Positions 308 through 52,600 of a DNA stretch of 64,000 bases are shown piece after piece. A program made the translations under genes and the position numbers. The notes below the pieces were generated by a model. It had not been told where the DNA came from and ran no database searches. It worked only from the letters and a program-made list of their open reading frames with translations. Numbering within the stretch: the first letter of the stretch is position 1; every line of letters starts with the position of its first letter. The stretch comes from Octopus vulgaris (taxonomy: Eukaryota). The stretch lies in the NCBI GenBank assembly GCA_951406725.2, contig OX597814.1:165044001-165108000 (forward strand). The letters run 5' to 3'.

Positions 308-393
308 ATTTTCCTGAAGAGAAAGCTGCATAATGGACTCCTTATTCAATCGGAATTAGGGACTTTGCAGACTTCGAAACATATGTCGAAAAT
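308..393 (+). ncRNA. Type I hammerhead ribozyme, canonical core
   Basis: Stem I ATTTTC(308-313)/GAAAAT(388-393); CTGAAGA 314-320; long stem II GAA..CTGCA/TGCAG..TTC; GAAA 376-379; short palindromic stem III AC-ATAT-GT; GUC cleavage triplet ending at 387. Confidence 0.85.
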
Positions 394-515
394 AAAATAA
401 AGGAATTTTGTTAAATCTTCGTTCAACTCCATTCTTTCCTATACTTTATATATATATATATATATATATATATATATATATATATATATATGTACTATGT
501 GTGCGTGTGTGTATA

Positions 516-939
516 TTGAGTGCGATGGGTAAATTGTTGCCATTTTATATTTTTAATTTCTCGGATGCACATTGTTTGTTTTTGATTTTGTTGACTAAGC
601 AGTATAGTAGGGTCAGTTTTTCTGCGACCGCATCACCCCTAAGATCTGGCCACCTAACTGCCCAGACTGCAACCCCCTTGATTATTATGTGTGGGGCGCA
701 GTTGAGCGGGAGTGCAACAAAACTCCTTGTAACACCAAAGTTGAACTGAATGCAAAGATTATGGCAACATTCACCAACTAAAACAAGGTAACTGTGTAGA
801 AGCGTTGGAGGCCGTTGTTGAAGCCAATAGCGGTTTTATTGAATAAATTTAGTATTTAGTATTTCAAACATATCTATTTAAATTAGATGTTATTTTCATT
901 ATTGCGTAATTCAGACAACAGTTTATTCACCGTACCCTG
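516..939 (+). mobile_element. Internally deleted maT (DD37D) Tc1/mariner-superfamily element
   Basis: Degenerate TIRs (gtgcgatgggtaaattg / cagtttattcaccgtaccctg) flanked by TA; colinear with both ends of the 4832-6070 element; retains WPPNCPDCNPLDYYVWG coding. Confidence 0.8.
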
Positions 940-1134
940 TATATATATATATATATATATATATATATATATATATATATATATATATATATATATATAT
1001 ATATATATATATATATATATATATATATATATATATATATATATATATATATAATATATCAATAAATAAAATAAAACATATGCGTATATATAAACATATA
1101 TGTACGTACCTACCTCTACATGTACATATACACG

Positions 1135-2045
1135 CATATATGAGTACAGGACACCAAAAGGACGTCGAACACAATGAGAAAGGAAAACAGACACAAACCA
1201 AAGGAACTGGATATATATTTAAAAACAACAAAAAAATAATATAGAATACAGGAGAATTAACACAAAGAAAAAAAACCCTTCTTCAGACACTAAAGCTTTC
1301 ATCTACTCTACGTTTCGAAGGATAAAAGCGAGACGTATCTTCGACAAGAAAACTTTCCTTCCTGCGAAAAGCAAATCAATAAAAGTTCTAAGATCTTTTC
1401 GCAGAGGGGTAAAAAATAGTAACAACAGGACAGTAACGACAGTGCAAATTGTAAACAGTAGAAGACAGGACAAGGAAAAACAAGATATATACATATATAT
1501 ATGAGGTTTCCAATGAAATTAAAGCAAAAGCGACCACACCTGTTTTATTCATTGAAATAGACGTAGTGCAATTGCTGGAGACTAAAGTAGTCCCCGTTAC
1601 AAGCCATGTTTTTGCGCCATCGATGAAGCAAACTTTTGAATCATTTTTGATGAAATGGTGTGTATTTTTGTATCCATCTCTTTTCATCCACCTTCATTTC
1701 GTCGGGAATCATCAAATCAGTGTTATCGAAGACTCTCCCTCATTGGAACAGGTGAAAGTTGGGTGGCAATATATCCTGGGTGTACAGTTTATGTGAGATC
1801 ACTGATCGGCTTACTTTGCCAATTGCCTGATTTGTTTACAAGATGTATATGGTCGCATATTTTCATGGTGAATGTAGATTGCTTTCTAATGCACACGAAG
1901 CTTTCGAGAAGAGGTCCGATGAAGAACTGTAATTCTATTAAGATTTATTTTCAGGTCTCTAACACGTTATGTATCCCTGGAATTTTATCCACATATTTGA
2001 AGATGCTTTCTATTGCGTCTTCAGTATCACAAACATAGAGTACAA
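1135..2045 (-). mobile_element. Penelope-like element remnant (possible decayed GIY-YIG end plus terminal repeat)
   Basis: Minus-strand frames give LRVH*KAI and PPNFHLF..KVDEKRWIQKY, which resemble a PLE GIY-YIG C-terminus. 1140-1470 is homologous to 52300-52600 and carries CTGAAGA. Confidence 0.45.
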
Positions 2046-2209
2046 AAGTTCAGAGAAAATAAAATATGTGATTTATATTTAAGTTGTCTTAATTTTTAAA
2101 ACAACCTTACCAGTTTCACGGTAAGCTTTTGTAACAATTGAAAAAGCTATTTTGTTGTGTTTGCCAAAGAAAGCACGATCATCTATATAATCCTGTTATA
2201 CGCCATTGT

Positions 2210-2530
2210 GAAGGTGCATGGTTCAGTGGATAGAGCGTCGGGCTCACAGTCATGAGGTAGTGATTTCGATTCCCGGACCGGGTTGTGTATTGTGCTCTTG
2301 AGCAAGACACTTTATTTCATGTTGTTCGAGTTCACTCATCTGTAGGAACGTGTTGTAACGTCACTGGTACTAAGATTTATTGGTCTTTGCCTTTTCCTTG
2401 AATAACATCGTTGGCTTGAAGAGAGGAGTGTAGTATGCATGGGATATTGCTGGACGTCCATAAACAACCTTTCCTGGACTTGTACCTGGAACTTTCTAGG
2501 CGCAATCCCATGGTCATTAACGATTGAAAA
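2210..2530 (+). mobile_element. tRNA-derived SINE
   Basis: A box TGGTTCAGTGG, B-box-like TTTCGATTCCC, then the cttgagcaagacacttt body motif also seen at 14697-15007. Confidence 0.7.
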
Positions 2531-49058: not shown

Positions 49059-50394
49059 CATACAGGTGTCATATACATGGCTGTTTGATTGATCACGTCG
49101 AATAGACACCAACTCTGAAATCAAAATATCAAGGGAACATTATCTAGTCTCTTTCAATAGCAAATATTCATAGTCACATACATACACACAGAGGGAGAGA
49201 GTGAGAGACATAAGGTTGCGAACCAAACCAGAAGTTATGTTATAGACAGACAGATTTTACACAAATTATGATACTGATTACCCTGGAGCCCAACTTGGCT
49301 ATCGTTGCCAGTTTCTTAAGCCTCTACACATAAAATTAATACAAAATTAATACAAATGTTGAGGACCAGAATTTATTGATGCTTCTTGTCAGTCTCATGT
49401 ATACATTGGAGGTATAGAGGATGTCATAATGATGCCTCTACGATTCCATTAAAAGTTGAGGGCAAAAGTAAGCAAGCATGCAAAGACTGAGACATTTGTA
49501 CAACTCTTTATAATACTTCTTCTCCATCTCTCTCTCCCTCTCTTGCTCTCTCCTTCTCCAGTTCCCTCACTATTACCCCTTTCTCTCTCTCCCTCTTTCT
49601 CTCTCTTTCTTCCGCCTCTCTCAGCACAAACACTGCTTTCTCCTCCCTTATACCTATAGCATCAGAGAAAAGGAAACGAATAAACAAAAAGAAAAAAGAG
49701 GCACGTGACGTGGCATTTTATAACATTGATTGTTAGTTATGGTTGAACGCTGAATACATGTTTACATTTCAAACAAAGCAAAACGTGCATACATAGTTTA
49801 TATGTGGGAGAAAATGGAAATGTAAATACTTGGTGGCGCTTCTTGCTGACATCTGGCTTTGTTTAAAATGTAAACATGTATTTGTGATACAATCTCACGT
49901 CAGGCAACAATAAATGGGATTTAATTAGAGATTTTGTGATGCTTCTCGATCTTAATAACCATCATTACCTTCATAGACGCTAACTTCCGAAACTATCTTC
50001 TTACCAACCTCATCACTACCACAACCGATACCGCCGCCTCAACAATGCATTCTAAGGGCCAACTGGGGAATCTTTACGTAACAACTCAAACTGCTAGAAA
50101 TAGTAATCAAATCTCCTTCAAATCATAAGTCATAGTGATTTGGGCGATATAGTTCTTAATAAGAAGAAAAAACAAAACAAAACAAAACAAAGTATCACAG
50201 GATAATCACGTCCAAAACAACACCTTTGATCAAATGTCTGCTCAACCAGGATTGACCTGGGGTTAAACAACAGTGCATTCTTAACATTATCTTAATGGAC
50301 ACTTCCACGACTACCTTTACCGTGAATACTAACCCCCACCTACACTAGCGCCACCTTCATTCATGCAGCAACACTATCATATTCGCGGTCAGTA

Positions 50395-51350
50395 ACTCCA
50401 CCACCACCACCACCACCATCATCACCACAATCACCACCGCCGCCGCTACCGCCACCACCATCACCACAACCACCACCGCCGCCGTTACCGCCACCACCAC
50501 CCACCACCACCACAACCGCCACTACTAACAGACACTACATTCCAGCGCTACCTCAATTTCCCATTGCCAACAACAAAACACCATCACCACTACTACCATT
50601 ACAACCAGCGCCACCACTACCATCACCGCCACCACCATCACCACCACCACCACCACTACCACCACACCACTATCATCACAACACCCACCACCACCACTAC
50701 CATAACAATCACCACCATTTCCGCACCATCACCACCATCACCACCACCACCACCACTACAAACACCACTACGACTACTACCTCCACCACCACTACTACCG
50801 CACCATCACCACTACCACTAGCACCACTATCAACACCACCATCACCACCACCACCACCACAAACACCAATACGACTACTAGCACCACCACCACTACCATA
50901 AGCATTACCACCACTACCGTACCATTACCACCATCATTATTAGCATTACTGATTGCGACCACCACCACTAACACCACCATCCCTACAATAGCACCACTAT
51001 CACCACCGCCATCACCAACACCATTACAATACCACTACAACTACTACTACTACCACCACCACCACCACCACCATAACCGTCACCACCACTACTGCACCAT
51101 CACCACTACGACAGTACAACTATCCCCACAACCATCACCACCACCATTACAGATTACGACCACCACTACCACTAACACCATCACCATCACCACCACCACT
51201 ACGACTACGACGACGACCACCACCACCACAACCACCACCATGCCTTTTCCAAACAAACCCTACGGAGTCTACCACTGTCATCACTACCATCTCAATTACC
51301 CTCAGCAAAGTTCCCCACTATACCATTCCACCACCACCACCGCCAGCGAT
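50395..51350. repeat. Degenerate (ACC)n/(ACT)n low-complexity tract
   Basis: Visible imperfect trinucleotide repeats. Confidence 0.9.
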
Positions 51351-51945
51351 TCCGCGTAACGACCCTACCACCGCCCGTCAGTGGTAAATCAGTTCCTTTC
51401 AGCTAGTTCTCTAAATAGTACTTCATTGTTCATTCGTTATTAACCGAAGTTATCTATTTCTTGTCATAGACGGTCCCTTATCAGTATGGGGGGGTACGGG
51501 TGAGGACCACTGACAACTTGTGTTCCCCTTCCTCCAACCACCTTACCTTACACTAGCCCCTACCAACGCACATTCCCATACTCGCTTCTGTAACGGACAA
51601 ATTAAGAAGTGAGCCGTGCAAACATCAGATAAATTATGCCATAGTCCTTTATTTTTTTCTAGTTAAAAGAAAAACGTGACACATAAACATATTAGTATAT
51701 TCACACACACACGCACACACACATATGTATACACACATGACACTGACACACACACGCACACACGCACACACTTATACAGGGACTTTACCCATAAAATGTG
51801 TACGTATGCATATATATGTATGTATGTATTTGTGCCCATGTGTGTGTGTATGTATATATGTATGTGTATATATATATACACATACATATATATATATATG
51901 TATATATATATATATATATATATATATATATATATATATATATAT

Positions 51946-52123
51946 TGGGAGAATTCACACAAAAAAAAAAACAAAAGCCGAAGACAGGTGGTGTAGACAA
52001 CAAGCAGATGTATTAGTTTAACGATCGGGAAGTGAAGAAGTCTTTAACGTTTCGAGCCAACGCTCTTCCACAGAAAAGAACACAGAAAGAAACAAGGAGA
52101 GAAAATAAAGAATGTGTAGTGGC
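51946..52123 (-). mobile_element. Copy of the short hammerhead-like PLE family
   Basis: Minus strand TTT-CTGTGGA-A-GAGC-GTTG-GCTC-GAAA-CG-TT-AAAG at 52042-52076; ends at (TA)n. Confidence 0.75.
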
Positions 52124-52159
52124 TGAATAACAAGAAGTTGATTGTTATTACCGTAAGGT

Positions 52160-52600
52160 GAGATGCGATTGGTCGAGGACGATCACGCAGTGACGCGGTT
52201 TGATATTGGTATATGGGTAACAGTTAGTTGGAAAATACCGCATGGTAAATAGGAAATCAACCGTGTGGTGGAGAGGAAATCTGTCGGGTTGTTAGCAGCT
52301 CTTCTTGTTTGTTCTCGTTGTCCTGTTTGTGTTACCAATTTTGACCCTCCGCAAAATCCCAAGTTTTATTTGATTTGCTTGGCGGGAGCAACTGTTTTAC
52401 AGAAAGCGTATATTGTTGTTAAATTCTCGCAATACGAGAGTATAAAAACAGCCAACAACTGATGAAGGGTCGTTCTTTATGATGTCTTGTTTTCCATTTG
52501 TGTCTTTCGTTGTTCTAAAAATTAGTTAATATTCCATGTACTCGTACTTCGTATTTTTTTTGTTGTACACGTTTGATGACGTCCTATGCCCACATATGCA
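52160..52600 (+). mobile_element. PLE-like terminal repeat homologous to 1140-1470
   Basis: Shared blocks gtcctgtt..ttac..accc.c.gc.aaa..ttttatt.gatttgctt and ctga.gaagggt..gtcct..ca.atatgc; two upstream ATTGG boxes; ends at (TA)n. Confidence 0.6.

Follow-up and report, generated by a model that had tools for sequence, protein, structure and literature searches.

Hammerhead motifs of repeats at TA microsatellites in the Octopus vulgaris genome, including families with variant cores

A 64-kb stretch of the Octopus vulgaris genome (assembly GCA_951406725.2, contig OX597814.1, positions 165,044,001 to 165,108,000, forward strand), hereafter the window, carries a series of hammerhead ribozyme motifs close to (TA)n microsatellites. 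The contig measures 226 Mb and the genome 2.8 Gb; positions below are those of the window. A preliminary description had named 15 coordinates and proposed a large, mostly non-autonomous ribozyme-retroelement system aimed at microsatellites. Our analysis indicates with good confidence that the motifs belong to the 3' ends of repeats which have inserted at TA microsatellites, that the motif at 308 is the end of a Penelope-like element (PLE), that the other families are likely non-coding offshoots copied in trans, and that three lineages with changed cores are likely slow ribozymes or structures under selection. The system is mostly of a known kind, found here in a new host, and the new part, relative to the literature searched, is the family-wide core variants, the G3-C8 variant above all.

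Hammerhead folds in the window and across the genome

The window is rich in microsatellites (108 tandem-repeat rows), and its 101 listed open reading frames (ORFs) are mostly microsatellite read-throughs and transposon remnants. The words cited in the preliminary description are all present at their positions, and the 15 coordinates resolve into six complete type I folds, five broken family copies and four core-like words without stems. Of the more than a dozen hammerhead or hammerhead-like motifs claimed, the five broken copies lack a complete fold, and four (1275, 19710, 28311 and 52402) have no hammerhead fold. Three stems together with a palindromic stem III and an H17 other than G are found at 6 of the 15 sites, and in seven families when other copies are counted. 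The repeats carrying folds or broken folds are the following (RT, reverse transcriptase; pLTR, pseudo-long terminal repeat).

1–446, plus strand: 5'-truncated 3' end (3' untranslated region and pLTR) of a Hydra-like PLE, judged from its motifs; starts 77 nt left of the window, ends at (TA)22 (TA 447–491), and is 92% identical to the 3' end of an element with RT and GIY-YIG in locus L088
308–393, plus strand: canonical type I hammerhead with CUGAAGA, a long stem II and palindromic ACAUAUGU; predicted cut after C387
3569–3895, no single strand: inverted pair of the 3694 hammerhead family; the minus-strand copy has stem II, GAAA and ACGAUCGU but is cut before C3-A9; its relative L145 has a whole CUGAAGA fold
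4024–4779, plus strand: inverted and tandem copies of the 4555 family (~480–500 nt), whose fold is canonical CUGAUGA/ACUCGAGU; the copy at 4555 is decayed
11010–11196, plus strand: family A copy with a complete A6U fold at 11048–11085 (CUGUGGA+A, GAGC/GCUC, ACGU, U17); predicted cut after U11080
15487–15673, plus strand: family A copy broken by a C3G substitution (site 15561)
15738–16073, no single strand: head-to-head pair of the ~215-nt G3-C8 family between two TA tracts, in which only the left arm carries a ~60-nt tail
15943–15988, plus strand: G3-C8 hammerhead fold (UGUCA/UGACA, GUGAACA+G, GUCGC/GCGAC, AAUAUU); predicted cut after U15983
15880–15925, minus strand: second arm of the G3-C8 pair, broken by U16.1 to G (one stem III change)
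18552–19436, minus strand: an older non-coding family (~430 nt), present as tandem and inverted pieces, with a canonical CUGAUGA hammerhead at 18858–18800; predicted cut after A18805
19887–20412, plus strand: longer family A copy, broken by an 8-nt deletion through GAAA and stem III (site 20309)
43821–44013, plus strand: copy of the U4C (43887) family, with its fold at 43887–43921 (CCGACGA+A, ACGU, U17); predicted cut after U43917
51934–52124, minus strand: family A copy with a complete A6U fold at 52077–52042 (CUGUGGA+A)

In the 3694 pair, the cut at the inversion centre has removed the 5' side of stem I and C3-A9, and the TGAAGA seen there lies within loop II. The 4555 copy carries G8A and a broken palindrome; seven other copies of its family are canonical.

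A strict type I descriptor found two folds in the window (308 and 18800). A relaxed descriptor, which required pairing of core positions 3 and 8, allowed at most two core changes and asked for a palindromic stem III, found six complete folds (308, 11048, 15943, 18800, 43887 and 52042). At a score of at least 8, these six compare with none in 19 of 20 shuffles and one in the remaining shuffle, and at a score of at least 9, five real folds compare with none in all 20. Because the relaxed descriptor was tuned after the motifs were known, a 400-kb genome sample (40 stretches, each 10 kb long, spread over the genome at round coordinates) is the fairer test; it yielded 16 folds against 0–1 in five shuffles. 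With equal settings, five folds in the 64-kb window stand against 16 in 400 kb elsewhere, so that the hammerhead density of the window, which had been described as dense, is close to the genome background. Extrapolation from the sample puts the genome total at roughly 100,000 folds, with a wide margin.

The 191 descriptor matches in the 1.28 Mb examined form 36 clusters, among which a few single matches are probably chance; the proposed picture of many families of mostly non-coding copies agrees with this. The figure of about eight unrelated families for the window was overstated, as a fold is verified for seven, stems II and III are common to the 11048 and 43887 families, and 1275 and 52402 share sequence (80% over 75 nt). 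Ten families were searched genome-wide, with the best 40 candidates scored per search and 12–30 loci examined per family; the 3694 family is described from two relatives found in the flanks of other loci.

That standard descriptors would miss variant motifs was borne out. Rfam returned nothing at gathering score for the whole window, and at E ≤ 1 it gave microsatellite matches to microRNA models and no hammerhead among 150 of the 181 rows. In the short-stretch searches, which covered 308–393 and 15943, Hammerhead_1 was detected at 308–393 with 31 bits (cut-off 34), and no hammerhead was detected at 15943.

The association with TA tracts was likewise upheld: (TA)5 lies within 250 nt downstream of 12 of the 15 sites vs 14% of random window positions, and TA lies within 400 nt of 12 of the 16 folds in the 400-kb sample vs 25% of random positions. 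A (TA)n end was found in 25/30 loci of family A and 25/25 loci of the 43887 family.

The element at 308 and the families with variant cores

The 308 family is young, with 97–99% identity among copies, and GIY-YIG frames lie directly upstream of its hammerhead in several of 25 loci. In locus L088, the order is an inverted pLTR with a tail, an RT frame (GLYRDD), an endonuclease (EN) frame and a pLTR; this copy is frameshifted. RT followed by GIY-YIG upstream of the pLTR was found in the 308 family only (motifs in L063, L074 and L088), so the suggested link to RT/GIY-YIG ORFs holds for this family and was found for no other in the loci examined. Its copies end at TA in 18 of the 25 loci, and the other seven continue into one common tail; inverted copies occur in 6/25 and tails in 7/25.

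On these motifs, the 308 hammerhead is the 3' end of a Hydra-like PLE with RT and GIY-YIG reading frames. The protein motifs, read by eye, are SDKT, RWL (a partial RWK), CALC-NSE and CPH/CLH, with no CCHH. This agrees with the Hydra-clade PLEs with C-terminal EN, which have DKT, RW-L for RWK, CxxC before E and CxH after N, and no CCHH; a canonical hammerhead, (TA)n targets and the inverted pLTR and tail are further points of likeness (PMC8557442). Unlike those elements, the 308 family lacks the CxCX5C linker before EN, linker cysteines being absent from L063, L074 and L088, and the assignment is by motifs. Pfam did not recognise the RT and EN frames, and a PDB search with the RT was also empty; 7 of 28 homologues carry PF26215. 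A 'myb-like protein I' of Octopus sinensis, 81% identical to part of the RT frame, is by this sequence likeness probably a mis-named piece of a PLE.

Six different core sequences had been listed for the window, of which CUGAAGA, CUGAUGA and CUGACGA are all the standard CUGANGA, leaving three true variants. The consensus core (C3 U4 G5 A6 N7 G8 A9) is kept by the 308, 18800, 4555 and 3694 families, and is departed from by family A, most 43887 copies and the 15943 family. G3-C8, U6 and C4 are each fixed in a family of an estimated 10^4 copies.

Family A, comprising sites 11048, 15561, 20309 and 52042, has the core CUGUNGA (U6). Eight copies lie in the 400-kb sample, and the estimated copy number is in the tens of thousands. 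In 33 rows outside the best-hit set, which include the query copy and in which a locus may count twice, position 6 was T in 31, C in 2 and A in none; N7 took all four bases (G9/A7/T10/C7), and H17 was never G (A18/T11/C3/G0). Variable columns numbered 0/30 in core and stems vs 19/73 in loop and flank (Fisher p = 0.0013; 15% cut-off, CpG transitions discounted, columns not independent). The textbook A6 form gave 185 exact matches genome-wide, about 1% of the U6 total estimated from samples of 400 kb (2 matches) and 1.21 Mb (13 matches). A tree was built without the position-6 column after removal of near-identical best hits, which reduced 114 rows to 75; on it, the 30 A6 copies examined are dispersed among the U6 subfamilies.

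Of 15 non-anchor rows of the 43887 family, nine have the core CCGACGA and four have CUGACGA; C4 was found in three further clusters.

The G3-C8 family has a ~215-nt unit with an extra G after A9, G10.1-C11.1, a stem I of 5–7 bp and AAUAUU. It comprises two subfamilies with different loops II, over which G3 is kept in 64/64 and C8 in 63/65 arms, and in contigs of eight public runs (five organism codes) the differences of at least 5% in the motif fall in loop II, at one CpG, and in stem I as A-U to G-U. When positions 3 and 8 were left free, 15 of 16 clusters were Watson-Crick (CG 10, UA 3, GC 1, AU 1), against 0–1 in shuffles, and the 16th cluster includes a CG copy; all four Watson-Crick 3-8 pairs therefore occur in this genome, the AU case (A3-U8) being a single copy. 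Folds with an ACCGGU stem III (L250 minus strand near 6673, L082, L182 and L007) have U3-A8, and one copy has A3-U8 with a 6-bp stem I.

Systems of this kind are already described in other animals (PMC4209133, PMC8557442, PMC7229834, bioRxiv 10.64898/2026.07.22.740005). Metazoan hammerheads in the pLTRs of PLEs have a short stem I, an extra nucleotide between 9 and 10.1, G10.1-C11.1 and a palindromic stem III, each genome having many families, for the most part in single truncated copies, with opposite-strand pairs in some cases and a U3-A8 variant (Cervera and de la Pena 2014, PMC4209133), and the octopus motifs are alike in all these respects. In its accessible part, the cores reported are C3-G8, U3-A8 and U3-G8 only, and no cephalopod is included; the octopus adds G3-C8, A3-U8, U6 and C4. 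TA targeting, inversions and tails of PLEs have also been published (PMC8557442). U3-A8, A6C and U4C are known natural core variants with lower activity (Perreault et al. 2011, PMC3088659; Naghdi et al. 2020, PMC7151607), and a PLE hammerhead carrying the double mutation C3G/G8C regains part of its cleavage in vitro (Frangieh et al. 2024, PMC11167929). These known variants are rare single cases or engineered, whereas those of the octopus are fixed in large families. Our literature search, in which coverage of work on PLE hammerhead variants was incomplete, found no natural G3-C8 or A6U hammerhead and no octopus hammerhead survey. An octopus repeat annotation reports 31 recently active Penelope-like families, and the word hammerhead is unused in its accessible text (PMC13282606).

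The 18800 (~430 nt) and 4555 (~480–500 nt) families are older, have canonical cores, and appear retrozyme-like. Tandem copies occur in 15/20 loci of the former, which is inverted in 12/20, and in 5/15 loci of the latter; no linked PLE frame was found for either in the loci examined. They resemble the non-autonomous animal retrozymes of the non-LTR type (lacking long terminal repeats), which are non-coding hammerhead units, often tandem, with a proposed dependence on PLEs (PMC7229834; Li, Clavereau and Pollet 2026, bioRxiv 10.64898/2026.07.22.740005), although the octopus units are 430–500 or 215 nt long with minimal hammerheads, are known here from genomic DNA, and in the G3-C8 family are head-to-head, not tandem. 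Retrozyme-type tandem neighbours are rare in family A and in the 43887 and 15943 families. The word octopus is absent from the accessible text of both retrozyme papers.

Sites without a fold and other repeats in the window

The four sites without a fold lie in the following repeats.

1049–1487, minus strand: copy of an 830–880-nt non-coding tandem unit; CUGAAGA half core alone, no hammerhead fold (site 1275)
19520–19806, plus strand: piece of a young 549-nt tandem family; CUGACGA, GAAA and the palindrome present, stems I and II missing (site 19710)
28291–28824, minus strand: ~530-nt repeat outside the system; two CUGANGA/GAAAC word pairs, no stem I, not flanked by TA (site 28311)
52292–52629, plus strand: repeat resembling the 1275 family; CUGAUGA half core, palindromic stem III and stem I missing (site 52402)

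As hammerheads, 1275 and 52402 were rejected on a CUGANGA without usable GAAA or stem I, and an upstream reading of 1275 is absent from the similar 52402 family. At 19710, stem I is missing and stem II has at most 1 bp, and family copies carry A9C or have GAAA changed to GGAA or GAAT. At 28311 there are two core-like word pairs with no stem I, and 0/12 copies end in TA. Type II, type III and cross-paired readings of all four, examined by eye and by folding, each lack stem I or II. The 19710 and 1275 families are tandem non-coding units within TA tracts, without a complete fold, and the former has inverted copies in 9/15 loci. A Neptune-like PLE frame near the 19710 array (L252/L259; weak Pfam matches to RVT_1 and GIY-YIG) was rejected as the partner of that family, because it ends in a 3' sequence of its own and because TA tracts and a further insertion lie between it and the array. 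This Neptune-like PLE (L252 8511–9998, L259 511–2316, and L130) has RT, a CX4CxxC linker and GIY-YIG, and a 3' hammerhead-like motif, CUGAUGC (A9C), in both copies seen. The 28291–28824 repeat is abundant, begins AGGAGG and ends CCTCCT, and has CCAAT- and TATA-like boxes beside its two stemless core words.

Two more short repeat families are very abundant, with many copies in the window (10525, 26738, 45903, 46368 and 52824; 22398–60672), one with TA ends and the other with AAT ends; the relaxed descriptor found no hammerhead fold in either within the window. Between 23315 and 37465, a ~550-nt unit is repeated five to six times between (AAT)n tracts, with a perfect (AAT)1010 array at 33093–36122. 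The frame at 24251–24796 has motifs that we take to be those of long interspersed nuclear elements (LINEs) with a restriction-like endonuclease, of the Dong/R4 type. The frame at 4927–5721, adjoining a TA tract, is presumably a Tc1/mariner transposase-like remnant, with a second partial copy at 619–884, and minus-strand frames at 63090–63747 resemble what we assume to be a fragment of a hAT-type transposase.

Insertion anatomy and the role of the variant hammerheads

In the G3-C8 family, an inverted arm is present in 27 of 30 loci and a one-sided tail in 25 of those 27, a combination that is a signature of PLEs (PMC8557442, PMC11167929). Many different central junctions occur, single arms share the 5' start, and the 5' end is fixed ~60 nt upstream of the predicted cut. 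A miniature inverted-repeat transposable element inserting at TA, with a likeness to the hammerhead by chance, would account for inverted pairs in TA tracts and for the negative Rfam result at 15943, but this reading of the 15880/15943 palindrome is highly improbable, since the one-sided tails, variable centres and shared 5' starts are not the symmetrical, fixed terminal inverted repeats of such an element, and since all three stems, the extra nucleotide and G10.1-C11.1 are present, with no such score in 20 shuffles.

We propose that a PLE protein would nick (TA)n and start reverse transcription inside the RNA, 50–250 nt downstream of the hammerhead, as the insertion anatomy and published work on PLEs suggest (PMC8557442, PMC11167929). 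Most copies would stop early and so leave the hammerhead just upstream of the TA tract. PLE proteins would copy their own RNA and short non-coding passengers, and inverted second copies and one-sided tails would be by-products of the same reaction. For minimal type I hammerheads, whose stem III is palindromic, folding is predicted to depend on a second copy or on the protein of the element. The hammerhead of the single PLE examined in vitro required protein (PMC11167929). Acting as dimers or with protein, the ribozymes would slowly trim or circularise the precursor RNA, as we infer from PMC4209133. Because one core change is fixed in each lineage while the rest of the fold is kept, the variants are likely slow ribozymes or selected structures, and not the outcome of random decay.

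Several observations weigh against this proposal. Beyond the 308 family, no linked PLE frame was found when two natural PLE proteins were compared with all retrieved loci and nine longer stretches. Upstream walks in 10-kb stretches for 43887, 28311, 1275 and 52402 gave no linked PLE frame, and no partner was seen upstream of family A, followed for only ~340 nt. Long 43887 copies extend 2.2–3.8 kb into CA-rich non-coding sequence. The minimum-energy folds predicted for the 308, 11048 and 43887 monomers differ from the hammerhead, and activity is reported to drop when position 4 or 6 is changed (PMC3088659, PMC7151607). The G3-C8 family is young, which makes conservation among copies weak evidence, and among the diverged copies of family A, a supported clade with six A6 rows and four U6 rows may be an older canonical branch. 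Same-sense tandem copies are rare in the three variant families (3/30, 1/30 and 0/25 loci), which speaks against a simple working dimer. The fixed 5' end of the G3-C8 copies implies that the inserted templates were uncut or re-joined; the head-to-head pair is predicted to form a single hairpin of -220 kcal/mol that would hide the ribozyme; and an exact-pattern search for the tail-to-start junction of this family gave no match genome-wide. When contigs of 8 of 22 public runs were compared with the G3-C8 unit, neither a tail-to-start joint nor shared ends were seen, although such contigs can exclude neither. Finally, mutating the hammerhead left PLE insertion in vitro unaffected (PMC11167929).

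Many of these points favour the strongest alternative, to which we give somewhat less than an even chance: the variant motifs, descended from PLE hammerheads, no longer cut, and persist only as a recognition shape for the PLE protein or as passengers in a few successful source copies. The cut site lies within every inserted copy, the G3-C8 fold would be concealed in palindromic transcripts, tandems are rare, and cleavage is dispensable for insertion in vitro, where the anole element showed no RNA ends at its cut site (PMC11167929); moreover, the 19710, 1275 and 52402 families have spread without a complete fold. However, family A varies exactly where a catalytic hammerhead is free to do so, at N7 and H17, and a paired change at positions 3 and 8 is difficult to account for unless the active-site pair is under selection, the double mutant having partly rescued activity. 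We give about an even chance that at least one variant cleaves measurably, with a lower chance of relevance in vivo.

The farthest-reaching form of our proposal is one that we regard as possible yet doubtful. It holds that the roughly 100,000 minimal hammerheads, in dozens of families, would use all four 3-8 pairs, including natural working G3-C8 and A6U ribozymes, and would be tuned down so that uncut RNA serves as template, with the PLE protein or Mn as a possible activator.

It is unlikely that family A and the 43887 family were moved by a LINE-type element and merely borrowed the hammerhead. Their copies lack the PLE tail or any shared tail, are inverted in 1/30 and 0/25 loci, respectively, show plain 5' truncation, and have no linked PLE ORF in the loci examined, which suits such a mover and counts against our proposal. 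Their motifs nevertheless match the minimal PLE hammerhead consensus but for one letter (extra A after A9, G10.1-C11.1, ACGU; PMC4209133), and their (TA)n ends are like those of the Hydra, Neptune and Naiad PLEs (PMC8557442).

If the variant motifs do not cleave, the octopus would hold an ordinary PLE repeat landscape, in a clade for which it was not previously described in the literature searched. If the G3-C8 and U6 motifs cleave, the natural core space of the hammerhead would be wider than standard descriptors allow, and counts in animal genomes would be too low. As cleavage is dispensable for insertion in vitro, canonical and variant subfamilies of one element would provide test pairs for the role of PLE hammerheads.

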